Positions 6,205 through 61,600 of a stretch of 64,000 nucleotides of DNA are shown here, in pieces. The stretch's first letter is position 1; each line of letters opens with the position of its first letter. Under the pieces are notes generated by a model. That model was not told where the DNA came from and did no database searches. It saw nothing but the letters and a program-made list of their open reading frames with translations. The translations under genes and the position numbers were made by a program. Source of the DNA: Torpedo marmorata (Eukaryota); the NCBI GenBank assembly GCA_977017645.1, contig OZ360227.1, positions 130,696,001 through 130,760,000 of the forward strand, given 5' to 3'.

Positions 6205-6347
6205 GAGGGAGAGAGGGGATGGAGGGTGGAGGGGGAGAGAGGGGAGGGAGGGTGGAGGGAGAGAGGGGAGGGAGGGTGGAGGGAGAGAAAGAGAGTGGGG
6301 AGGAGGGAGGGTGGAGAGAGGGGGGAGGGAAGGGAGAGAGAGAGGGG
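6205..6347 (+). repeat. Polypurine (G/A) tract, left part
   Basis: Almost pure G/A low-complexity sequence. Confidence 0.95.
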
Positions 6348-7029
6348 TGTAAGAGCCGTAGGCTCATTGACTTACCGTTGTTGCGGCGCTCCGATGTCTC
6401 GTCGGGCCTTGGAGCGCTCGCATAGTTATGTAGGCCGTCCTCGGAGCGCTCCTAGGCCACGTCGGGCCATTGAGCGCTCGCGTTGTTCACTGGGCCGTCC
6501 TCTGAGCGCTCCGAGGCCACGTCGGGCCTTGGAGCGCTTGCGTTGTTCTGTGGGCCGTCGTCGGCCCGTTCTTTGATATGCGCATGCGCGGGAGTGCCGA
6601 CGGGCGCATGCGCAGTATAGAGTGACGTCATAGTGCGCGTGGGAGGCTGGGAATTGTAGTATGCGCGTTGGAGCATGCGCAGAACCATTGGAGAGAGAGA
6701 ACAAAGAAAGGATAGAGATGTATGGGGGGTGAGTCTGGTCTCCACATCTTTATTGACCGTTTTATACCGTTTTATAACTTTTAACATCATCTACAGTATT
6801 TCATATCGTTTTGGAATTGTTTAAAGAATAATTTAAAGGAACTTATCATACATCGTTTACAAGAACTGTTTATATTAAAGTCATTGAAGATTACTGCAAG
6901 TCATGTGTGAAAATAAAGGTTTTTGAACATATTGGACTTTGTCAGTAAATTAAATAAAACGCGTCAAAAGCAAGGACCACACTTAGCCTCCAGGTGACTA
7001 TTGGTGGAGCGAAGTCACCGTTACTTATA
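6348..7029 (+). repeat. 5' LTR of the BEL element (TGTAAG...CTTATA)
   Basis: Direct repeat of 11062-11743 at offset 4714; internal 60-bp-period repeats; AATAAA near 6912 and 6953. Confidence 0.95.
6579..6660 (+). promoter_or_regulatory. LTR promoter motif cluster: two NRF1, one CRE, one ZNF143/SBS (second copy in the 3' LTR at +4714)
   Basis: TGCGCATGCGC 6579-6589, GCGCATGCGCA 6604-6614, TGACGTCA 6623-6630, TGGGAATTGTAGT 6648-6660 (reverse complement ACTACAATTCCCA). Confidence 0.65.
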
Positions 7030-7473
7030 GTCAATAAAGAGCTGGCTGTTTGGAACAGAAGTTTGAAGGAAAGAAGATAGAAAAAACTCTCTGTGCTTTG
7101 GACTGATATAAATTGATGGCCATTTAGGAGATGCCTCGAGTTGGGGGCAGTTTGTAATCTACATCCATCTGCCATGAGTAACAGCCAGAGAGGGATTTAA
7201 AGCTTCAAATCTTATAGAAAAGTGTCCTATAAATACGTTGGAGAAACTATTTTTTGGAAAATCAGTGATATTAGTGACGGATGTTGTGGTTGAAACTCGT
7301 TTAAGGATTGCAGCACATTACAGTCATTTGAAGTGGTAGGCATAAGTCTGTGGACTCCTGTGTATCTTTAGCAAGTAAGAACACAGATTGGAATTGCTGC
7401 CGCTGGTCCATTGGGGACTGTTGTTTGACTAGTGTTGTGTATGCTTGAAGGAAAGAGGAACAAGACGAGTAAA

Positions 7474-10400
7474 ATGGCCGCAGCAGCCACTGATACTGCA
7501 GCTACTGATTTATCAGCAGCTGACGCAGCAACCGCTGATGTTGCTGTTGAGGACCAACGTATTGAAGACATGAAGGTTTCGGATATTAAAGAAGAATTGA
7601 AGCGACTGAAAAAGGACATAAGTGGAAATAAAAGGGTTCTTATCGAAAGATTGAAGCTGGCAAAGGATGAAGAGGCAACTTCATTATTTGAACAAGAAGA
7701 TAACTTGGAAATGGCTGAAATTGTGTCACCAAATGAGGAAGAAATTGAATTGGTTGAAGATGCAAAGGATATACAATTCGAATTGGATAAAGAGGTAAGT
7801 ATGAAGACAACATATGAACTGCAGGACGAAATACAAGCAAGTGACAGTGTCTCAAATGCTGAAAGCAGGAGAAGCAAAAGAAGTTCTGGTTCAAGCTCCA
7901 GAGTTTCTCGTACTTCAAGTTCTGCATCGTCACGTACAAAGGTTGATGTTAAATTGGCCGCTCTTCTTGCACAACAAAAAACGCTTAAGGATAAATTTAT
8001 ATTAGAACAAGAGGAGGAGCAGCTAAGACAAAATGAGGAGCAGCTAAAGGAGCAGCTAAGACAAAAGGAGGAGCAGCTAAGACAAAATGAGGAGCAGCTA
8101 AAGGAGCAGCTAAGACAAAATGAGAAGCAGCTAAAGGAGCAGCTAAGACAAGAGAAGGAGCAGCTAAAGCAGAGAAAAGAACTGCAGGAGCTGGAAGCAA
8201 ACATTGCTATTGCCAAGGCAGAAAAGAAAGCAATAGAAGGTTCAATGGTATCTGGTGTTAGCAGTAAATCATCTAAATTATCTGATAATAAAAGGTCATA
8301 TTTAAAAAAAGAGTCACAGGAAAAGAAACCAACCAAAAGGATAGATATTTTAGAACCAAGGATACAAAACTTACATATACAAAGACAAACCTTTCAAGAG
8401 CATATTGGTATCGAGTCACATGTACCAATAATAACATCTGAAAGCAAAGCTGCGGATTGGGTACGGTCGAACGAAGCAGCTTCTTTGTTATATGAGCCAA
8501 GCATCAGAAATATGGAAGAAACTACACCAGTAAGGTTTCCAGATACATTGCATACAACACGAGACAGTGAACAGAGTAATGTATTGAAGTCCAAGGAAAG
8601 ACAAAATGAAATTGCTGCATCATTGTTTCAGTTACAGTCTCTCTCTTCTTTACCCAAGAAAGAGATACAAACTTTTGATGGTGATCCACTTCAATATCAA
8701 TCGTTTATGAGATCTTTCAAACGCAATATTGAAGATAAATGCCAAGATCGTGATGAATGTCTTTATTATTTGGAAATGTTTACAAAGGGACATCCAAAAG
8801 AACTGGTAAAAAGTTGTAACCAAATGTCTTCAGGAAGAGGATTAGACAAAGCTAAGGATTTATTGGAACAATATTTTGGCAACAAACATCGAATTGCTTT
8901 AGCTTATATGGATAAAGCTCTTAAATGGACATCAATAAAACAAAATGATGTAAAGGCTTTGCAAGAATATACTTTGTTTTTAAGAGGATGTTGTAATGCT
9001 ATGGAAGAAATCGATGGTATTCGTGAGCTTGATGTGCATAGTAATATGCGAATCATTTTAGAAAAATTACCTTACAAGGTATGGGATAGATGGAGAAATT
9101 TGGCTTGTGATTTACAAGTAAATTATGGTCGAAGAATTACTTTAAAGGATTTGGTAAATTTTCTTGAACGACAAGTGTATGTTGAAACAGATCCACTATA
9201 TGGAAATACCAGAGATAATTCAATGAGCAAAGATGTAAGAAAATCTAATACACAGTTTAGTCCGAAAGTGAAAAGGAGTACATTTGCTACTAATGTGCAA
9301 GTTATAAGTAAAGAAAATGACAAAATAAATAAGGAAAAGGAAAGTTTGCCTAATGAAAAGAGTTGTTTGTTCTGTAAAGGTGGACATGTTTTGGAAATGT
9401 GTTTACAATTGGAAAGGAAAGAACATAAAGAAAAGATCGCTTTCTTAAAGGAAAATGGAATATGTTTTAGCTGTCTGTGTAAAGGGCACATCAGTAAAAA
9501 CTGCGAGAAGCGAATTAATTGTAACATATGCAATTTAAAACATCCTAGAATTTTGCATATCCATAACAGGAACAAGGAATTGGAAAAGGAGCAAACAGAA
9601 ACAAAGGAAACAACAGAAAATAATGTTATAACCTCGGTTCAGACAAGTGGTCTTACTGGGGCCGGGGTGAATAACTGCAAACTTTCAATAGTACCTGTAC
9701 AAGTCAAGGCCAAGAAAGGGGATGCAATAGTAAAAACATATGCATTTCTAGACCCAGGTAGCACTGCATCTTTTTGCACGGAAGGACTAATGAATAAACT
9801 TAATATTCAAGGAAGAAAATCAAGAATTATGTTAAAAACCATGGGACAAGAAAAGGTTGTTGAAACTAACATTGTTTCAGGCTTAGAGGTTGCTGGATTG
9901 GATGACAAAAAATTTTGTGATCTTCCAAGTGTATATACTCAGAAGACTATGCCTGTGAACGAAGGAAATATTCCTCATCAAAGTGATATCCATCATTTAG
10001 CTTATCTATGGAAGGTTTATTTACCTGAAATTAATTCTGAGGTAGAAATGCTGATTGGTTCAGATGTGCCAAAGGTTTTGGTACCAAAAGAAGTAATAGA
10101 AAGTAAAAGGAATGGACCTTACGCTATTAGAACCATACTTGGTTGGGCAATCAATGGACCAATGGAAAGAAATAATGATATTGCTCAGGAACAGGTAGCG
10201 ATAAATGTTAATAAAATTTCAGTTGAGAAATTTGAAGAGTTAAGAGAAGAGCAAAAAACCGTGAATAAGAAAATCACTTATGAAGAAAAGAAAACAGATC
10301 AATGTGAAAATAAATCAGTGGTATTTAAAACAACATTAAAGAAATTAATTTCGTCAGAAATGGATGAAAGTGAAGTATTAGAAGATGTTGCAAATAATAC

Positions 10401-10638
10401 TGTTGATCATTCATGTGTAATTGAATCAAATACAGGAATAAAACAAGTGACTGAAAACAAATCTGAATGTAGATTTTATTCAAATTCTAATTCTAAGAGT
10501 TTAAATTCTTCACATGAGAAGTGGAATACTGAAGAAAGGAATAAAGTGAAACGACGTGCTGAAGAAGTGCCTTGTGTTAAATTCAAAAGGAAAACTGTAT
10601 CTATTTTGTCTGAAGAAGATTTGAGGTTTACTGATTGA
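7474..10638 (+). CDS. BEL polyprotein: SAP-like domain, coiled coil, Gag, three Zn knuckles, aspartic protease; no RT/RNase H/integrase
   Basis: Uninterrupted ORF (in-frame ATGs at 7441 and 7474, the latter in AAAATGG context); MKVSDIKEELKRLKKDISGNKRVLIERL; FDGDPLQYQSF; CLFC..H..C, CFSC..GH..C, CNIC..HPRILH; AFLDPGS. Confidence 0.9.
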   Translation: MAAAATDTAATDLSAADAATADVAVEDQRIEDMKVSDIKEELKRLKKDISGNKRVLIERLKLAKDEEATSLFEQEDNLEMAEIVSPNEEEIELVEDAKDIQFELDKEVSMKTTYELQDEIQASDSVSNAESRRSKRSSGSSSRVSRTSSSASSRTKVDVKLAALLAQQKTLKDKFILEQEEEQLRQNEEQLKEQLRQKEEQLRQNEEQLKEQLRQNEKQLKEQLRQEKEQLKQRKELQELEANIAIAKAEKKAIEGSMVSGVSSKSSKLSDNKRSYLKKESQEKKPTKRIDILEPRIQNLHIQRQTFQEHIGIESHVPIITSESKAADWVRSNEAASLLYEPSIRNMEETTPVRFPDTLHTTRDSEQSNVLKSKERQNEIAASLFQLQSLSSLPKKEIQTFDGDPLQYQSFMRSFKRNIEDKCQDRDECLYYLEMFTKGHPKELVKSCNQMSSGRGLDKAKDLLEQYFGNKHRIALAYMDKALKWTSIKQNDVKALQEYTLFLRGCCNAMEEIDGIRELDVHSNMRIILEKLPYKVWDRWRNLACDLQVNYGRRITLKDLVNFLERQVYVETDPLYGNTRDNSMSKDVRKSNTQFSPKVKRSTFATNVQVISKENDKINKEKESLPNEKSCLFCKGGHVLEMCLQLERKEHKEKIAFLKENGICFSCLCKGHISKNCEKRINCNICNLKHPRILHIHNRNKELEKEQTETKETTENNVITSVQTSGLTGAGVNNCKLSIVPVQVKAKKGDAIVKTYAFLDPGSTASFCTEGLMNKLNIQGRKSRIMLKTMGQEKVVETNIVSGLEVAGLDDKKFCDLPSVYTQKTMPVNEGNIPHQSDIHHLAYLWKVYLPEINSEVEMLIGSDVPKVLVPKEVIESKRNGPYAIRTILGWAINGPMERNNDIAQEQVAINVNKISVEKFEELREEQKTVNKKITYEEKKTDQCENKSVVFKTTLKKLISSEMDESEVLEDVANNTVDHSCVIESNTGIKQVTENKSECRFYSNSNSKSLNSSHEKWNTEERNKVKRRAEEVPCVKFKRKTVSILSEEDLRFTD

Positions 10639-10857: not shown

Positions 10858-11061
10858 TAAATGTAAACTGACTTTATTTGTTGTTGTACATTTCACAGGT
10901 TACAGACTTTTGTTGAATCAGAGTTATGGTAAACTCTAGATTTATGAAGAAGGAAGAAAGAAGATTTGTATTGTTTTGAATATTATGGTTATTGTTATTT
11001 ATAATTTATAGTGTAATTATTATTCAAGACATTACGTCTAATTATAATAATTAGGGGCCGG

Positions 11062-11743
11062 TGTAAGAGCCGTAGGCTCATTGACTTACCGTTGTTGCGG
11101 CGCTCCGATGTCTCGTCGGGCCTTGGAGCGCTCGCATAGTTATGTAGGCCGTCCTCGGAGCGCTCCTAGGCCACGTCGGGCCATTGAGCGCTCGCGTTGT
11201 TCACTGGGCCGTCCTCTGAGCGCTCCGAGGCCACGTCGGGCCTTGGAGCGCTTGCGTTGTTCTGTGGGCCGTCGTCGGCCCGTTCTTTGATATGCGCATG
11301 CGCGGGAGTGCCGACGGGCGCATGCGCAGTATAGAGTGACGTCATAGTGCGCGTGGGAGGCTGGGAATTGTAGTATGCGCGTTGGAGCATGCGCAGAACC
11401 ATTGGAGAGAGAGAACAAAGAAAGGATAGAGATGTATGGGGGGTGAGTCTGGTCTCCACATCTTTATTGACCGTTTTATACCGTTTTATAACTTTTAACA
11501 TCATCTACAGTATTTCATATCGTTTTGGAATTGTTTAAAGAATAATTTAAAGGAACTTATCATACATCGTTTACAAGAACTGTTTATATTAAAGTCATTG
11601 AAGATTACTGCAAGTCATGTGTGAAAATAAAGGTTTTTGAACATATTGGACTTTGTCAGTAAATTAAATAAAACGCGTCAAAAGCAAGGACCACACTTAG
11701 CCTCCAGGTGACTATTGGTGGAGCGAAGTCACCGTTACTTATA
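11062..11743 (+). repeat. 3' LTR of the BEL element
   Basis: Direct repeat of 6348-7029; the ORF track shows identical translated ORFs in both copies. Confidence 0.95.
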
Positions 11744-12475
11744 AGGGGGAAGGAGGGAGGGGAGAGAGAGGGGGAAGGAGGTAGGGGAGAGAGAGGGGGA
11801 AGGAGGGAGGGGAGAGAGAGGGGGAAGGAGGGAGGGAGAGAGAGGGGAAGGAGGGAGGGGAGGGAGGGGAGAGGGAGGGGAGGGAGGGTGGGGGGAGAGA
11901 GGAGGGGGAGAGAGGGAGGGGAGGGAGGGAAGGTGAGAGAGAGGGAGGAAGTGAGAGAAGGGGAGAGAGGGGGAGAGAGAGAAGCGGAGGGAAGGGGAGG
12001 AGGGGGAGAGAGGAGGGAGGGGGATAAGGGGGAGAGAAAGGGAGGGAGGGGAGAGAAGGGGAGACCGGAGGGAGGGAGGGGGAGAGAAGGGGAGACCGGA
12101 GGGAGGAGGAGAGAAGTGGGGAGGTGAGGGGGAGAAGGGGAGAGGGGAGGGAGGGGGAGAGAAGGGGAGAGGTGAGGTAAGGAGGAAGAGAGAAGGGGAG
12201 AGGTGAGGTGTGGAGGGAGGGGAGAGGGAGGGACAGAGAGAAGGGGAGTGAGGGAGGGGAGAGAATGGGAGGGAGGGGGAAGAGGAGAGGGAGGGAGAGA
12301 GAGGGGAGGGAGGAAGGGGAGAGGAGAGGGGGAGAGAGAAGGGGAGGGAGAGAGAGGGGAGGGAAGGGGAGAGGAGAGGGAGATAGAGAAGGGAAGGAAG
12401 GGTGGGAGAGGAGTGAGGGGGATAGAGAAAAGTGGAAAGGGGGCGAGAGAGTGAGGCAGAGAAATGGGGAGGGAG
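11744..12475 (+). repeat. Polypurine (G/A) tract, right part (~730 bp)
   Basis: Low-complexity GGGAGA-type sequence, contiguous with 6205-6347 once the BEL is removed. Confidence 0.95.
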
Positions 12476-33862: not shown

Positions 33863-34811
33863 TTTGGTTGATTGGTTGACATCAGCTGCATGAATAACAA
33901 TAGCGGGCGGGAACATTTTTGCATATGAATACCCTTCTTCCCCAGCCTGGTATTGATCTGTTAGCTGGGCAGCTTGGCCAGCGCCATTTTAGGGCTGCTG
34001 GTCTTGTACTGCTCCAGCTTTCAACCGCACCGGTTCGCTATGCTAAGGGTCGCGTTACAGTGTGTTATGCCACTGTTTACTACCGCTCGATCTCCGCGGT
34101 GGCGGGCCGCCACATGACCCCCCCCCCCAGAACCGGCGCTACAGTTCATAGTGTCCGTGGATGCAGTCCCCAATATCTTTGGTGGTCTGCCTCTGCCCCG
34201 AGGTGCTGGTGTCTCCACGGGTTGTGTCGGGTCCGAGTGTGCCGGCTTGAGCCTGTCTGCGGTGAAGACCTCTGGTTTGCCACCGATGTCCAGTTCGAAG
34301 GTGGCCCCGTTGTTCCGGACGACTCGGAAGGGGCCTTCGTGGGGCTTCTGGAGTGGTGGATGTGATATACCTATCAATGACAGACGCGAGTCTAGAAGTG
34401 CAGGAATTAATAGGCTTTTATTACCAGAATCAAAGCCAGGGCTAAGCTACACCTTGACCTGGTGATCCCTGCTGGATTGTCCCGGAACTGGGGGAGGAGT
34501 TGCTGGCTCAAGGCCTTTATTCCATGTAAAGGGGGAGGAGTCACCGGGACAGACAGACAGGTCATGGTCATACCTGCCTCAGGCCACAATACATACTAAA
34601 AGTGGTTTACCACATTCACCCCTTCTTTTAGAACAAGTCCGACGGGGGGGGTGAAGTGGATACCATAGTCTTAACGGGAGAGGAGAAGAAAATACAAATA
34701 CCCATAGATTATATACATAGTCTAATATACCAACACCCATAGATTATACATAGTCTTTACAAATTGAGTCTAAGAAAAAAAATACAAATACCCATAGATT
34801 ATACATAGTCT

Positions 34812-37800
34812 TTACAAATCGAGTTTCACCGGCGGCCGGATTTGCCGCCGTGACCTGCGTAGCGCCAGCGGTGATGGTAGTGGTTGTGGAATGAGGGTAC
34901 GTGATGCCTGCGGAGACGGTTGTGGTTGTGGAACGGGAGTAGGTGTAGTAGGGTGGATCTGGGTCTGGTTTGCCTCCTGCCTGGCTAGTGGCCTGTCCAG
35001 CTGTGACGGGGGCGTTGTACCCGCCGTGCTGGGAGGCGGATGGGCCGGAGGGGGCAGCTGCGACCCGGCGTTCCCGCTGTCGGGGACCTCTTCTGACGCT
35101 CCTGCAGGAGCCAGGTCCCGTATGGACACCGTGTCTTCCCGTCCGTCAGGGAAAACAACGAATGCATACTGCGGGTTCGCATGGATCAGCTGCACCCTCT
35201 CGACCAAGGGCTCGTACTTGCTACTCCGAAGATGTTTGCGGAGTAGCACCGGCCCCGGGGACGTCAGCCAGGCAGGGAGTGTAGTTCCGGTGGTCGATTT
35301 TCTGGGGAAGGAAAAGAGACGTTCGTGAGGGGTAGCGTTAGTGGCAGTACACAGAAGGGATCGTATGGAGTGGAGGGCGTCCGGGAGAACCTCCTGCCAG
35401 CGAGCCACTGGCCACCCTTTTGCTTTCATGGCCAGTAGTGTCGCTGTCCATACTGTGGCGTTCTCCCTCTCCACCTGTCCGTTCCCCCGTGGGTTGTACC
35501 CCGTGGTCCTACTGGTAGCGATGCCTCGGGTCTGCAAGTGCTGTCGCAGCTCCTCGCTCATGAACGCGGATCCCCGGTCGCTATGGACATAGCTGGGGAA
35601 CCCGAACATGGTGAATACCTGGTGGAGAGCCTTGATAGCCGACGCCGCCGAGGTATCTGGGCAGGGGATGGCGAAGGGGAACCGCGAGTACTCATCAATG
35701 ATGTTGAGGAAGTACACATTGCGGTTCGTGGAGGGGAGGGGGCCCTTGAAGTCTATACTGAGACGTTCGAACGGGCGGGTGGCCTTGACCAGCTGTGCTT
35801 TGTCGGGGCGGTAGTACTGCGGTTTGCATTCCGCACAGACTCGGCAGCTGCTGGTCATGGTCCTGACCTCATCCAGGGAGAAAGGCAGGTTCCGTGCTTT
35901 AATGAAGTGGAACAGCCTGTTAAATCCTGGGTGGCAGAGGTCATTATGTAGGGAGTATAACCGGTCGATCTGCGCGCTGGCGCACGATCCCCGGGATAGA
36001 GCGTCAGGGGGCTCGTTGAGCTTCCTGGGCCGGTACATGATGTCGTAATTATAGGTGGAGAGTTCTATTCTCCACCTCATGATTTTGTCATTCTTAATTT
36101 TACCCCGCTGCTGGCTGTTAAACATGAAAGCGACGGAGCGCTGGTCCGTCAGCAGGGTAAAATGTTTTCCGGCGAGATAGTGCCTCCAGTGCCGGACAGC
36201 CTCGACAATGGCCTGGGCCTCTTTCTCTACCGCGGAGTGCCGAATTTCGGGGCTTTGAAGGGTGCGGGAGAAAAACGCTACCGGTCTTCCCGCCTGGTTG
36301 AGGGTAGCAGCCAGTGCGAAGTCCGAGGCGTCACTCTCCACCTGAAAAGGTTCCGACTCGTCCACCGCGTGCATCGCTGCTCGGGCGATGTCCCCTTTTA
36401 TGAGGTCGAAGGCCTCACGTGCCTCCGCTGCCAGGGGAATCTTGGTGGATTTGACGAGGGGTCGGGCTTTGTCCGCGTAGTTTGGGACCCACTGTGCATA
36501 ATACGAAAAAAACCCGAGGCATCGTTTAAGTGCTTTGGGGGTAACGGGGATCGGAAGTTCCAACAGGGGGCGCATGCGGTCGGGGTCGGGTCCAATCACC
36601 CCGTTTTCCACGACGCACCCCAGGATAGCGAGTCGGGTAGTCCCGAACATGCATTTCTCCTTGTTATAGGTGAGGTTCAGCGTCTCGGCCGCCTGTAAGA
36701 ACTTCCGAAGGTTCCTATCGTGATCCTGGCGATCATGACCACAAATGGTGATGTCGTCCAGGTATGGGAAGGTGGCAGTGAGCTTGAACTGGTCAATGAT
36801 CCTGTCCATCTCCCTTTGGAACACGGATACCCCATTTGTTACCCCGAAGGGGACGCGCAGAAAATGAAATAATCTGCCGTCCGCCTCGAAAGCGGTGTAC
36901 ACTCGGTCCTCCCGGCGGATCGGGAGCTGATGGTAAGCCGACTTTAGGTCGATGGTGGAGAACACTTTATATTGAGCAATCTGGTTGACCATATCCGCGA
37001 TCTTTGGCAGCGGATAGGCGTCCAGTTGCGTGAACCGGTTGATGGTCTGGCTATAGTCCACCACCATCCGGCTCTTAGCCCCGTTCTTTACCACGACTAC
37101 CTGTGCTCTCCAGGGGCTATTACTGGGTGCAATGATCCCTTCCCCCAGTAAACGCTGCACCTCCGCCTTAATAAATGCCCTGTCCCCTGCACTGTATCGC
37201 CTACTTTTCGTTGCAATGGGCTTACAGTCAGGGGTCAGGTTGGCGAAGAGTGGCGGGGGTTGGGTCTTTAGCGTGGAGAGACCACAGGTAGTCTGGGGCG
37301 TGTTATTTAAGTATTGGGGGTTAGTCACTACGATCGGGGGGTGGGGCCCATCATAGTGCATGGTGACGCTACGCAGGTGGCTTTGGAAGTCCAATCCCAG
37401 CAATAAAGGAGCACACAGACGGGGCATGACCATCAACGAAAATTCCCGATATTCCGTGCCCTGTACCACTATATTCGCCACACAACCCCCCCGGATGTCT
37501 GTTGTGTGCGTTCCAGACGCCATGGCCACCCTCTGGCTTACCGGTACAACGGTGAGGCCACAGCGCTGGGCAGTGTCTGGATGTATGAAACTTTCGGTAC
37601 TGCCTGTGTCGAACAGGCAGGTGGTCTTATGCCCCTCAACGAGAATGTCCATCATTGATCTGGACAGTTGATGGGGCGCGCTCTGGTCCAGCGTCACGGA
37701 TGCCAGGGTCGAGACGAAGTCTTGGTCCGATGAGACGTCTTGATCCGGTGGCAGCTCCCTTTGCTCGCACGTGTCGCTACGAGATGGCGGCGCCGGAAGT

Positions 37801-38924
37801 GCTGGAAGTGCTGGCAGGGCCGCGGTGAGGTTGTAAAATGGCCGCGCCGGAAATGTGGAGATCGGAAGTGTAGACCAAGATGGCCGCCTCCAGTCCTCGC
37901 ACGAGGTCTCCGCCGGAAGTGACGTCAGGTAAGATGGCCGCTCCCCCCCGTCGCACGTGGCGCTGCTGGAAACCTGAAGTGCTGCGTGCTGTGATGGCCG
38001 CCTCCAGACCTCGCACGAGGTCTCCGCCGGAAGCGAAGTCAGGTAAGATGGCCGCTCCCGTACCTCGCACGCGGCGCTACTCGGACCCGTACGCGACTTG
38101 GAGCGGCAGGCCTTAGCATAGTGGCCTTTCTTGCCACAGCTAGAACAAGTCGCGTCTCGGGCCGGGCAGCGCTTGCGCGGGTGTTTGTCGAGCCCGCAGA
38201 AGTAGCACTTCTCGGGCTCCCGGGTGACAGCGGCAGCGGTTACCTCACTGGTGGCGGCGGGCTCTCGGGCAGCGGCGGCAGCGGCCAACTCACGGATGGC
38301 GTCGGCGGCGGCGAGCGGGTCCCGGTAGACGGCAGCGGCCATCGCGTTGCTTGCAGGGCTGGCGGTTGGGGCGATCCAAGAAGCAGGCTGCGCCTGCATG
38401 GCGTCAGCGTTCTTGAGGGCCGAGTCCAGCGTAAGGATGTTCTGGACGGTCGATTTCAGGGTCAGGGCGGCATGTTCCAGCAATCGCTGGCGGATGTAGC
38501 CCGACCTGATCCCCATTATGATCGTGTCCCTTGCCAGTATTTCGGCGTGTTGCTCGGCCGTCAGGGCTCGACAGTCACACGCCCGCACCAGGAGCATCAC
38601 GTCCTGGATGTATTCGGAGACCGACTCTCCGGGTCGCTGGTACCGCTGCGATAGCCGGTGCCTTGCGAAAATCTCGTTCACCGGCGTCAGGTACAGCTTT
38701 CGGAGGGCTTCCAAGGCATTATCGAAGGTCTCACAGTCCCTGACGGCGCCATACACTCGCTTGCTTACCCTGGACATGAGGATATCGAGTTTCTGTTCGT
38801 CAGTAACTGCTCCGGACGACCTCATGTAGGCTACGAAGCAGCGCAGCCAAAGTTCGAAGTCGCTTGCAGCGTCTTGGGCCAGGGGGTCGATGTCTAGCTT
38901 ATCCGGCCTTAACAAATTCTCCAT
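34812..38924 (-). CDS. Gag-Pol polyprotein (1370 aa): two Zn knuckles, protease, RT, RNase H, integrase
   Basis: CYFC..H..C, CSSCGKKGHYAKAC, LFDTGS, IDLKSAY, YLDD, VESDAS, HNDLCH..CRVC, IDFKGP, HSDRG, VEREN; no stops. Confidence 0.97.
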   Translation of the reverse strand: MENLLRPDKLDIDPLAQDAASDFELWLRCFVAYMRSSGAVTDEQKLDILMSRVSKRVYGAVRDCETFDNALEALRKLYLTPVNEIFARHRLSQRYQRPGESVSEYIQDVMLLVRACDCRALTAEQHAEILARDTIIMGIRSGYIRQRLLEHAALTLKSTVQNILTLDSALKNADAMQAQPASWIAPTASPASNAMAAAVYRDPLAAADAIRELAAAAAAREPAATSEVTAAAVTREPEKCYFCGLDKHPRKRCPARDATCSSCGKKGHYAKACRSKSRTGPSSAACEVRERPSYLTSLPAETSCEVWRRPSQHAALQVSSSATCDGGERPSYLTSLPAETSCEDWRRPSWSTLPISTFPARPFYNLTAALPALPALPAPPSRSDTCEQRELPPDQDVSSDQDFVSTLASVTLDQSAPHQLSRSMMDILVEGHKTTCLFDTGSTESFIHPDTAQRCGLTVVPVSQRVAMASGTHTTDIRGGCVANIVVQGTEYREFSLMVMPRLCAPLLLGLDFQSHLRSVTMHYDGPHPPIVVTNPQYLNNTPQTTCGLSTLKTQPPPLFANLTPDCKPIATKSRRYSAGDRAFIKAEVQRLLGEGIIAPSNSPWRAQVVVVKNGAKSRMVVDYSQTINRFTQLDAYPLPKIADMVNQIAQYKVFSTIDLKSAYHQLPIRREDRVYTAFEADGRLFHFLRVPFGVTNGVSVFQREMDRIIDQFKLTATFPYLDDITICGHDRQDHDRNLRKFLQAAETLNLTYNKEKCMFGTTRLAILGCVVENGVIGPDPDRMRPLLELPIPVTPKALKRCLGFFSYYAQWVPNYADKARPLVKSTKIPLAAEAREAFDLIKGDIARAAMHAVDESEPFQVESDASDFALAATLNQAGRPVAFFSRTLQSPEIRHSAVEKEAQAIVEAVRHWRHYLAGKHFTLLTDQRSVAFMFNSQQRGKIKNDKIMRWRIELSTYNYDIMYRPRKLNEPPDALSRGSCASAQIDRLYSLHNDLCHPGFNRLFHFIKARNLPFSLDEVRTMTSSCRVCAECKPQYYRPDKAQLVKATRPFERLSIDFKGPLPSTNRNVYFLNIIDEYSRFPFAIPCPDTSAASAIKALHQVFTMFGFPSYVHSDRGSAFMSEELRQHLQTRGIATSRTTGYNPRGNGQVERENATVWTATLLAMKAKGWPVARWQEVLPDALHSIRSLLCTATNATPHERLFSFPRKSTTGTTLPAWLTSPGPVLLRKHLRSSKYEPLVERVQLIHANPQYAFVVFPDGREDTVSIRDLAPAGASEEVPDSGNAGSQLPPPAHPPPSTAGTTPPSQLDRPLARQEANQTQIHPTTPTPVPQPQPSPQASRTLIPQPLPSPLALRRSRRQIRPPVKLDL
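37780..38070 (+). promoter_or_regulatory. YY1/ETS/CRE motif array in a ~60-bp-period repeat inside the Gag-PR linker
   Basis: ATGGC(C/G)G cores near 37782, 37835, 37876, 37931, 37992 and 38045; CGGAAGTG at 37794 and 37863; CCGGAAGTGACGTCA at 37913-37927. Confidence 0.5.
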
Positions 38925-40073
38925 CGGATTCGGATTTTCTTGAAATTGGTAATAAAATTGATATACCTATCAATGACAGACGCGAGTCTAGAAGTGCAGG
39001 AATTAATAGGCTTTTATTACCAGAATCAAAGCCAGGGCTAAGCTACACCTTGACCTGGTGATCCGTGCTGGATTGTCCCGGAACTGGGGGAGGAGTTGCT
39101 GGCTCAAGGCCTTTATTCCATGTAAAGGGGGAGGAGTCACCGGGACAGACAGACAGGTCATGGTCATAACTGCCTCAGGCCACAATACATACTAAAAGTG
39201 GTTTACCACAGGATGGTGTGGCCCTCTGCGTACGAACACATACTCACAGTCTTGGAGTTCTTTAGGGATGTTGAACTTGGCTTGCCCGTGTCTGGAGGGT
39301 GAGATCGGAGCCAGGTTACCGACCTTTTCCCGCAGCCTGTCCAGGAAGGTGGTTGTATCCTCCTGTTGACCTCTGGCTGGTGGGACGAAATCCCCAGGGA
39401 CCATGAGTGGAGCTCTGTAGACGAGCTCGGCGGAGGATGTGTGGAGGTCTTCCTTCGAGGCTGTACGAATCCCCAGCAGTGCCCATGGCAGTTCGTCAAC
39501 CCAGTTGGGTCATAAGAGCAGCCTTGAGGTGCCTGTGGAAGCGCTCAACCAGCCCGTAGACTGCGGGTGGTATGCTGTTGTGTGGTGTAGCTGAGCGCCC
39601 CACAGGTTGGCAACGTCGGTCCACAGGCTGGAGGTAAATTGTGCGGCTCTTTCGGAGGTTATGTGGCGTGGTAGCCCGAACCTTGCTACCCAGGACAAGA
39701 CGAGTGCCTTGGCGTCGAACCTGGTGGATGTGTCGGCCAGGGGGATTGCTTCTGGCCACCGGGTGAAACGGTCGACCACCGTGAACAGGTAGCGGAAACC
39801 CTGTGAGACTGGTAAGTGTCCCACTACGTCCACGTGAATGTGGTCAAACCATCGCTCCGTTGGCTCGAAAGGCTGCAGGGGAACCTTGGTGTGCCGCTGT
39901 ACTTTGGCTGTTTGGCACTGTGTGCATGTCTTGGCCCGCCCGCTGACTTGTTTCTGCAATCCATGCCACGCGTACTTGCTGGCCATCAACCGGACCGTGG
40001 TCCTGTTTGATGGATGTGCCAGCCCGTGGATGGAGTCGAAAACTCGTCGCCTCCATGCCGTTGGGACGATAGG

Positions 40074-56401: not shown

Positions 56402-57375
56402 AAGGATGAAATTACGTAATACCTGGAGGTGCATGAAAAGATAGACCCAAGTCAGTATGCTTTCCTTAAAGGAAAATCATGCCTGACAAACCTATTGCAA
56501 TTTTTTGAAGAGATCACAAGTAGGATAGACAGGGGAGATGCAGTGGGTGTTGTGTATTTGGACTTTCAAAAGACAACGTGTCACACATAAGGCTGCTAAA
56601 CAAGATGAGAGCCCATGGAATTATAGGAAGGTTACTAGCATGGTTAGAGCATTGGCTGGTTGGCAGGAAACAGAGAGTTGGCTACCAACTACCAGTGGTG
56701 TTCCGCAGGGGTCGGTGTTGGCGCCGCTTCTTTTTACGTTGTATATAAATGATTTGGATTATGGAATAGATGTCTTTGTGTCTAAATTTGCAGATGACAC
56801 TAAAAATAGGTGGTAGGGGAGGTGGTGCTGAGGATACTGAAAGGCTGCAGAGAGACTTGGATAGATTAGGAGTTAGAGGTGGCAGATAAAATACAATGTT
56901 GGAAAGTTTACTGCACTTTGTTAGAAGAAATAAATGGGCAGACTACTATTTAGATGGGGAGAAAATTCAAAATTCGGAGGTGCAAAGGGACTTGGGAGTC
57001 CTCGTGCAGGATATCCTAAAGGTTGACCTCCAGGTTGAGTCGGTGGTGAAGAAGGCGAATGCAATGTTGCCATTCATTTCTAGAGGAACAGCATAAAAAA
57101 GCTATGGATTTCCTCACCTCCAGACCACAATCTGTGAGGATTGGTAAGAACATCTCCTCCACAATCTCCATCATTACCAGAGCACCACAGGGCTGCGTTC
57201 TTAGCCCCCTACTCTACTCACTTTACACCTACGACTGTGTGGCTTGGTACGACAATAACACCATCTACAAATATGCCGACGATACCATGGTAGTGGGTTG
57301 TATAAAGAAAGGTGATGAGTCAGCATACAGGAGGGAGATTGAAAACTTGGCTGAATGGTGCACCAACAACAACCT
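56402..57375 (+). repeat. Left copy of the ~970-bp direct duplication flanking the L1
   Basis: Matches 60627-61600 at offset 4225; the ORF track has identical ORFs (56538/60763, 56896/61121). Confidence 0.95.
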
Positions 57376-60300: not shown

Positions 60301-60628
60301 TGGTCGGCTTAAAAATAAAAATTTGAAGATCTCTGAACATTGGATCAGGCTGGTAACCTAATTTCCACAAAATTTTAGTTTATAGTTATTTTTTAGTTTA
60401 GATTGACATTCTCCTTAGTTTTTTCTTTTTCTTTTCTTTACTTTATTTTATTTTATTTTATAGATTAGTAGGGGTGGGAGGGTTAGGGAGGGGTGGGGGG
60501 GTTAGGGTGGGGAGGGTGGTTGGGAGGGAGAAAATATATCACATGTATTTTGATAATTTTGCGATTTTATATAATGTATTTTGTGATTTAAAATTTTAAA
60601 TAAAATATTCAAAAAAAAAAAAAAAAAA
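57376..60628 (+). mobile_element. Young 5'-truncated L1 (family A) with a poly(A) tail
   Basis: ORF2 open except for one frameshift near 58250 (680-aa ORF 58284-60326); G-rich 3' UTR, AATAAA, A18 at 60611-60628. Confidence 0.96.
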
Positions 60629-61600
60629 GGATGAAATTACGTAATACCTGGAGGTGCATGAAAAGATAGACCCAAGTCAGTATGCTTTCCTTAAAGGAAA
60701 ATCATGCCTGACAAACCTATTGCAATTTTTTGAAGAGATCACAAGTAGGATAGACAGGGGAGATGCAGTGGGTGTTGTGTATTTGGACTTTCAAAAGACA
60801 ACGTGTCACACATAAGGCTGCTAAACAAGATGAGAGCCCATGGAATTATAGGAAGGTTACTAGCATGGTTAGAGCATTGGCTGGTTGGCAGGAAACAGAG
60901 AGTTGGCTACCAACTACCAGTGGTGTTCCGCAGGGGTCGGTGTTGGCGCCGCTTCTTTTTACGTTGTATATAAATGATTTGGATTATGGAATAGATGTCT
61001 TTGTGTCTAAATTTGCAGATGACACTAAAAATAGGTGGTAGGGGAGGTGGTGCTGAGGATACTGAAAGGCTGCAGAGAGACTTGGATAGATTAGGAGTTA
61101 GAGGTGGCAGATAAAATACAATGTTGGAAAGTTTACTGCACTTTGTTAGAAGAAATAAATGGGCAGACTACTATTTAGATGGGGAGAAAATTCAAAATTC
61201 GGAGGTGCAAAGGGACTTGGGAGTCCTCGTGCAGGATATCCTAAAGGTTGACCTCCAGGTTGAGTCGGTGGTGAAGAAGGCGAATGCAATGTTGCCATTC
61301 ATTTCTAGAGGAACAGCATAAAAAAGCTATGGATTTCCTCACCTCCAGACCACAATCTGTGAGGATTGGTAAGAACATCTCCTCCACAATCTCCATCATT
61401 ACCAGAGCACCACAGGGCTGCGTTCTTAGCCCCCTACTCTACTCACTTTACACCTACGACTGTGTGGCTTGGTACGACAATAACACCATCTACAAATATG
61501 CCGACGATACCATGGTAGTGGGTTGTATAAAGAAAGGTGATGAGTCAGCATACAGGAGGGAGATTGAAAACTTGGCTGAATGGTGCACCAACAACAACCT
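60627..61600 (+). repeat. Right copy of the ~970-bp direct duplication
   Basis: Starts at the L1 poly(A) end and runs seamlessly into the rest of the Rex element. Confidence 0.95.

Follow-up and report, generated by a model that had tools for sequence, protein, structure and literature searches.

How does a retrotransposon without a site for a tRNA primer begin reverse transcription? The question is raised by a long terminal repeat (LTR) element in a 64,000-nucleotide stretch of Torpedo marmorata DNA (the window). The 11-mer GTCAATAAAGA (7030-7040) directly abuts the 5' LTR of this element, with a spacer of 0, and is the exact reverse complement of 6747-6757. The first-pass annotation had noted this match and that the 11 nt do not begin with TGG, and had proposed that the element is a BEL/Pao retrotransposon primed by its own RNA in the manner of Tf1. 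The match holds letter for letter and TGG is absent. Based on the comparisons described below, we conclude that this BEL/Pao family probably primes itself with LTR segment 6748-6757, a reading to which we give a probability of about 0.87.

The element is a BEL/Pao copy with an internal deletion and is non-autonomous (Table 1). Reverse transcriptase (RT) as well as RNase H and most of integrase are missing from the window copy and present in a full-length copy. Full-length kin in the same genome have a 2,134-codon frame with BEL pol domains, in which protease, RT, RNase H and integrase (PR-RT-RH-IN) follow one another in one ORF; the domains found in one of them (L111) were Peptidase_A17, Integrase_H2C2 and DUF5641, with RVT_1 and rve below the cut-off. 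These pol domains and their order, together with DUF1759 in the gag of the window copy, bear out the proposed BEL/Pao identity, as do LTRs within 0.2-1.2 kb, a polypurine tract and a target duplication. The proteins are thus those of BEL/Pao and not a Tf1/sushi (Ty3/gypsy) polyprotein. The nearest named protein relatives are fish proteins (identity up to 59%), and no relatives were found in the viral contigs searched. The LTR/leader junction of the family occurs at at least 6,732 places in the genome, and the element is young and very abundant.

Several features of the family stand apart from the question of priming. The LTRs terminate in TA rather than CA, as seen at window 7020-7030 and in L111-L120, and in L111, L112 and L115 the TA directly abuts the target duplication. 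The gag ORF has an N-terminal SAP domain (PF02037), noted at 7606-7701 (codons 45-76 of the frame from 7429 fall at about 7561-7656), which is also present in full-length kin. At 7982-8200, tandem repeats of 33 nt encode an E/Q-rich, coiled-coil-like stretch whose length varies among copies.

Table 1. Features of the BEL/Pao element in the window, and elements with an inverted U5 piece.
Feature	Position or element	Strand	Basis or remark
Left target-site duplication AGGGG	6343..6347	+	right copy at 11744-11748
5' LTR, 682 bp, TG...TA	6348..7029	+	exact repeat of 11062-11743
Promoter-like motif cluster: GCGCATGCGC repeats, TGACGTCA, GGGAATTGTAGT, ATTGG	6580..6692	+	sequence
68-nt intron GTGAGT...CTACAG enclosing the primer segment	6729..6796	+	alternative acceptors 6826, 6880
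Putative self-primer segment CTTTATTGAC	6748..6757	+	T at 6747 pairs in some copies only; putative cut after C6757
P2 helix, 5' arm, directly past the putative cut	6758..6765	+	pairs with 6954-6961
P2 helix, 3' arm (6954-6961), then GTCAA (6963-6967)	6954..6967	+	GTCAA is an alternative partner of the last 5 nt of the primer
U5 hairpin, 7-bp stem, 6993-6999/7013-7019	6993..7019	+	sequence pairing
Putative primer-binding site GTCAATAAAG	7030..7039	+	7040 hypervariable among copies
ORF: SAP domain, BEL/Pao gag (DUF1759), zinc knuckles, protease motif	7474..10638	+	
Polypurine tract AGGGGCCGG	11053..11061	+	precedes the 3' LTR
3' LTR, 682 bp, 100% identical to the 5' LTR	11062..11743	+	repeat comparison
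Elements with an inverted U5 piece	L202, L211-L213, L221, L225, L229, L234, L235, L246, L249, L250, L255, L267, L274		

The self-complementarity exceeds chance, and its conserved core is 10 bp. When the AT-rich half of the LTR was shuffled by dinucleotides, an 11-mer match arose in 2 of 3000 shuffles, and in 4 of 3000 with offsets of 0-8 allowed. Pairing that stops at exactly 11 nt, as first described, is a property of the window copy but not of the family, in which the conserved duplex joins 7030-7039 with 6748-6757 and base 11 is variable. Among family copies (37 of 40 parsed), positions 1-10 were identical, with part of them fixed by the parsing pattern itself, and position 11 was G in 20, A in 11, T in 5 and C in 1. 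Likewise, in the first 100 listed of the 6,732 genome matches, counted by eye on a single contig, base 11 was G in 67, A in 19, T in 13 and C in 1; positions 12 (G in 97) and 13 (C in 100) were nearly fixed. RTs add untemplated bases at ends such as the end of a plus-strand primer copy, and a hypervariable base directly behind the primer site would be the expected trace of such an end.

The primer site and its LTR complement change together across elements. We compared the window element, five more elements of the same genome and 11 elements on metagenome contigs from unknown animals, with LTR ends fixed from LTR pairs. The metagenome elements came from 75 loci, in 13 of which a second copy defined the 3' end of the LTR, and two (L123 and L187) were dropped as duplicates. 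Of a set of 20 stretches, most had no LTR pair in range, and L061, L063, L068 and L074 were retained. The matrix omits L066, which is a damaged member of the L061 family with a 10-nt match at offset 8; the LTR end of L131 was placed by eye, and the LTR range of L124 is too long.

All 17 elements had a perfect self match of 10-15 nt located 0-8 nt past the LTR, and the letters of the match differed among elements. By comparison, 9 of 272 non-self pairs matched, and internal control windows, used as a positional null, matched in 22 of 3791 cases (0.6% per window). The match was contiguous in nine elements. In the other eight (L143, L153, L154, L167, L169, L189, L192 and L131), a match of 10-15 nt appears only when the LTR is read as spliced at a canonical GT...AG junction, with introns of 76-372 nt. 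Eight of the contiguous elements, including that of the window, form one clade in a gag-protease tree (support 100/100), and within this clade there were paired changes at positions 1, 3, 4, 6, 8 and 10. Of 18 elements, 17 lacked a TGG at 8 nt or less from the LTR end, and by this measure the 18-nt tRNA-Arg or tRNA-Gly site of BEL/Pao was not found. The search for compensatory changes that the first-pass annotation had suggested thus revealed covariation across families, with each post-LTR site complementary to its own LTR as in elements of the Tf1 type. Among close kin, the spacer between the LTR end and the primer site is 0, 2, 4 or 6 nt.

The neighborhood of the primer site also resembles that of Tf1. 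The pairing of the U5 hairpin (GGTGACT with AGTCACC) was correctly identified at the outset, and equivalent stems with different letters are present in six of eight other contiguous-type elements. A U5 stem also lies beside the Tf1 site, as reportedly described by Lin and Levin in 1998. The P2 helix is next to the putative cut, and its partner motif was found 59-68 nt upstream of the LTR end in seven of nine contiguous-type elements.

Aberrant junctions in the genome appear to be fossils of priming from this segment. The search pattern was the LTR end followed by an extended reverse LTR copy beginning at 6757, and it asks for LTR-type extensions only. There were 80 junctions in which the reverse copy started exactly at 6757, and none with a reversed-pattern control. 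Thirty-seven reach the start of the LTR (8 of these continue into the polypurine tract and internal DNA), 9 are partial, 23 extend for 13-16 nt and then return to the leader, and 11 are of other kinds. A second family with a different primer sequence had 8 more such junctions. Together with the covariation, the junctions in two families strongly support the self-priming that had been proposed for this lineage, and they allow primer ends to be mapped from genome sequence alone. The end points of the partial primer copies (24, 46, 58, 65, 79, 155, 167, 245, 299 and 397 nt) are scattered and mark no single start site. A single origin is possible for the 16-nt conversions (p-AU 0.31), and the long inversions are ambiguous, as plus-strand DNA could also fold back at the 10-nt inverted repeat. 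In the L119 family, the 4-nt spacer is retained in the primer-junction copies, which indicates that the spacer is copied and later trimmed.

Other rearrangements bear on the position of the cut and the source of the primer. An inverted U5 piece of 73-75 nt lies right after the primer segment in the LTRs of integrated elements (Table 1), and some pairs have it in both LTRs. The inverted U5 piece of L233 is attached to C6757 and ends exactly at 6758. Among switches at the P2 helix, several of which are present in both LTRs of one element, none was copied past 6758, because the U5-side bulge was kept in 18 of 18. L233 and the P2 switches would fit a template that was cut between 6757 and 6758. 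In L288, both LTRs are intronless, yet the primer site holds a reverse copy of about 58 nt that is unspliced and has the letters of another subfamily. L288 could not have copied itself, and LTR sequence from another molecule therefore primed it, a case of priming in trans.

The primer segment lies inside an LTR intron that has been precisely lost from some copies. The donor GTGAGT at 6729 is 29 nt before the primer end, placing the segment 19 nt downstream of the donor, and the first AG past the primer is at 6795-6796. A targeted pattern detected the exact intron-loss junction in 33 LTRs (control, 0). These comprise 10 pairs, 5 that stand alone and 8 that are duplicates of a single locus, and by upstream sequence they fall into four variants. 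In a tree, nine intronless elements lie dispersed between copies that keep the intron, and their grouping in one clade is rejected (p-AU 0.003); intronless copies thus appear to have arisen repeatedly, without sign of expansion. Four independent deletions that we had not sought, found among the aberrant copies, also start at the donor and end at an AG (one with an ambiguity of one G). In four of the eight clade members (window, L068, L119 and L124), GTGAG precedes the primer end by 29-30 nt; the other four lack it. A pattern search for exact intron loss with the acceptor variant of the window itself found 0. In three contig sets of unknown kind, both a joint at the intron and a pile of ends were absent, which is neutral to either view. 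TTGAC was considered as the branch point and rejected, because families of the spliced type have the same 3' end in an exon.

Based on these observations, we propose that bases 6748-6757 of the LTR RNA anneal to the ten bases after the 5' LTR, and that the RNA would then be cleaved behind C6757; the RNase H of a full-length copy's RT is the probable enzyme. From the 3' end so formed, U5 would be copied as far back as 6758, and the strong-stop DNA would jump to the 3' repeat as usual. The primer would stay attached until the plus strand copies it, usually for 10 nt, and errors would be concentrated at base 11, just past the end of this 10-nt copy. The first bases of the transcript probably do not form the primer. 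Because the segment is within a GT-AG intron of the LTR, self-priming would be open to unspliced RNA only. Spliced RNA would act as message, and its copying would be rare and would use a primer borrowed from another molecule. That transcription starts upstream and that splicing acts as a switch seem to us on balance probable, less firmly so than self-priming itself. More tentatively, and at slightly less than even odds, host splicing of the LTR intron might be a priming switch across much of BEL/Pao, removing the primer here and building it at the exon-exon joint in sister clades. If so, the spliceosome would decide which transcripts are reverse transcribed, with opposite logic in related lineages, and in the window clade spliced RNA would be the message and unspliced RNA the genome.

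The position of the transcription start separates this proposal from one that shares self-priming with it, in which RNA starts at 6746-6748, its first 10-11 bases are the primer, and the intron is used only in RNA from the 3' LTR and is incidental. The motif cluster and the AATAAA signals (6912 and 6953) that had been annotated in the LTR are both present; we take the cluster motifs to be NRF1, CRE, ZNF143 and NF-Y sites, and CCACATC at 6742-6748 to be an initiator-like motif, which would favor a start there. A capped primer of 10 nt would also account for the usual 10-nt plus-strand copy, a length for which a long capped primer alone gives no reason. Predicted folding points the same way: the primer helix had a pairing probability of 0.91 when the RNA starts at 6747, and of 0.14 and 0.0 with starts at 6729 and 6700, respectively, for both of which the P2 helix dominates the fold. 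This result either supports priming by the first bases of the RNA or points to two alternative folds, and the primer region folds no better than shuffles (z -1.06). However, a start at 6747 with the first 11 nt as primer, as originally predicted, is not supported by the other observations. The conserved duplex is 10 bp, and an 11-nt primer would restore A at 7040 in every cycle, whereas 67 of the 100 copies have G. The segment is downstream of a donor that is used, and 10 elements are intronless in both LTRs. The primer copied into L288 extends about 58 nt upstream of 6757, to about 6700, donor included. TATA-like boxes in L119, L122, L124 and L162 lie 57-124 nt ahead of the segment. The 3' LTR is also transcribed, and a start upstream of 6729 is therefore not proved by the loss of the intron or by primer copies that are long. 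Set against the folding, the upstream sequence signals, base 11, intron loss and L288 lead us to regard priming by the first bases of the RNA as unlikely, if the most serious of the alternatives.

The remaining alternatives concern the source of the primer. It is improbable that the primer normally comes from the 3' LTR segment or a second packaged RNA instead of the 5' end of the same RNA: the junctions that reach the LTR start, those going on into internal DNA, and the trans priming of L288 are what such a route would give, but L233 and the P2 switches set the 5' end of the template at 6758, as if the 5' copy itself had been cut, and the first jump needs a repeat that would be lost if the 3' copy were cut. 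Priming by a tRNA fragment or other small host RNA, with the pairing serving only as a structural leader helix, would agree with the tRNA site given for the family (PMC8742986) and with the GT at the start of the sites in most families. We consider it very improbable, as the site sequences vary widely and each tracks its own LTR, the conserved TGG is absent, and the extended copies found are LTR sequence, though the pattern sought LTR-type extensions only. Hardly any weight falls on an excised intron (5' end at 6729) that is shortened to 29 nt and primes in trans; the constant spacing of donor and primer end in four families would suit it, but there are no primer copies ending at 6729, the copy in L288 passes 6729, and the conserved 3' end ...AC belongs to an exon in families of the spliced type and is thus no branch point. 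Self-priming by the LTR segment is the reading that we retain.

The window contains two other repeats of note. A young Ty3/gypsy element on the minus strand (34363-39210) has 252-bp LTRs that are 99% identical, a target duplication CATCC and a PR-RT-RH-IN ORF, with a perfect 11-nt self match 1 nt past the 5' LTR and no TGG. It likely represents the known Tf1/sushi type of self-priming, and serves as a positive control within the window. An exact direct repeat of 974 bp (56402-57375 and 60627-61600, 4,225 bp apart) is located around LINE-like RT sequence.

We found no report of BEL/Pao self-priming in the open literature; subscription papers, Repbase entries and supplements were outside this search. 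Word searches found no primer-site text in PMC3118150, PMC554778 and PMC12440569, and the accessible portions of PMC3601003, PMC13524379 and PMC8672886 have none on BEL primer sites. If our reading is correct, an abundant animal lineage, with at least 6,732 junction copies, uses a tRNA-free route, counter to the description of its family as tRNA-primed. Such elements would presumably escape silencing by tRNA fragments at the primer site, and the link between the LTR intron and the primer offers a testable means by which an element might keep message and genome RNA apart.

Compared with the Belpaoviridae as described by the ICTV, the window lineage is alike in gag (DUF1759), PR-RT-RH-IN order, LTRs and polypurine tract, and differs in lacking the 18-nt tRNA-Arg or tRNA-Gly site and in LTRs that end in TA instead of CA (PMC8742986). 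The same source terms replication in the family poorly understood. The missing tRNA site revises the description of the family and not the membership of the element, which stands because the family is placed by proteins.

Among self-priming elements, the mode proposed here is Tf1-like, but the element is not Tf1/sushi. In the portions available of the sources on these systems, Tf1 and Tf2 of Schizosaccharomyces pombe, Tj1, Tf1/sushi and Tcn1 (all Ty3/gypsy) likewise are without a tRNA site and have a short post-LTR site complementary to the LTR. A plant survey, in its accessible part, names self-priming for Tf1/sushi, Tcn1 and TAR only, and predicts it for TAR from an LTR match of at least 10 bp located 0-5 bp past the LTR (PMC6317226). 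TAR elements (Houba and Osr-1, plant Ty1/copia) thus pass the same match test as used here but belong to the copia superfamily, and that part of the survey draws no link to an intron; self-priming in BEL/Pao would be a further independent origin outside Ty3/gypsy and copia. In Tf1, according to passages of PMC7175516 and PMC4600332, it is the first 11 bases that pair, with RNase H cleavage falling between bases 11 and 12. The window element, in contrast, is BEL/Pao with a 10-bp core and a primer that lies in a spliceable intron and is probably internal to the transcript; its kin have spacers of 0-6 nt, and its sister lineages appear to build the segment by splicing.
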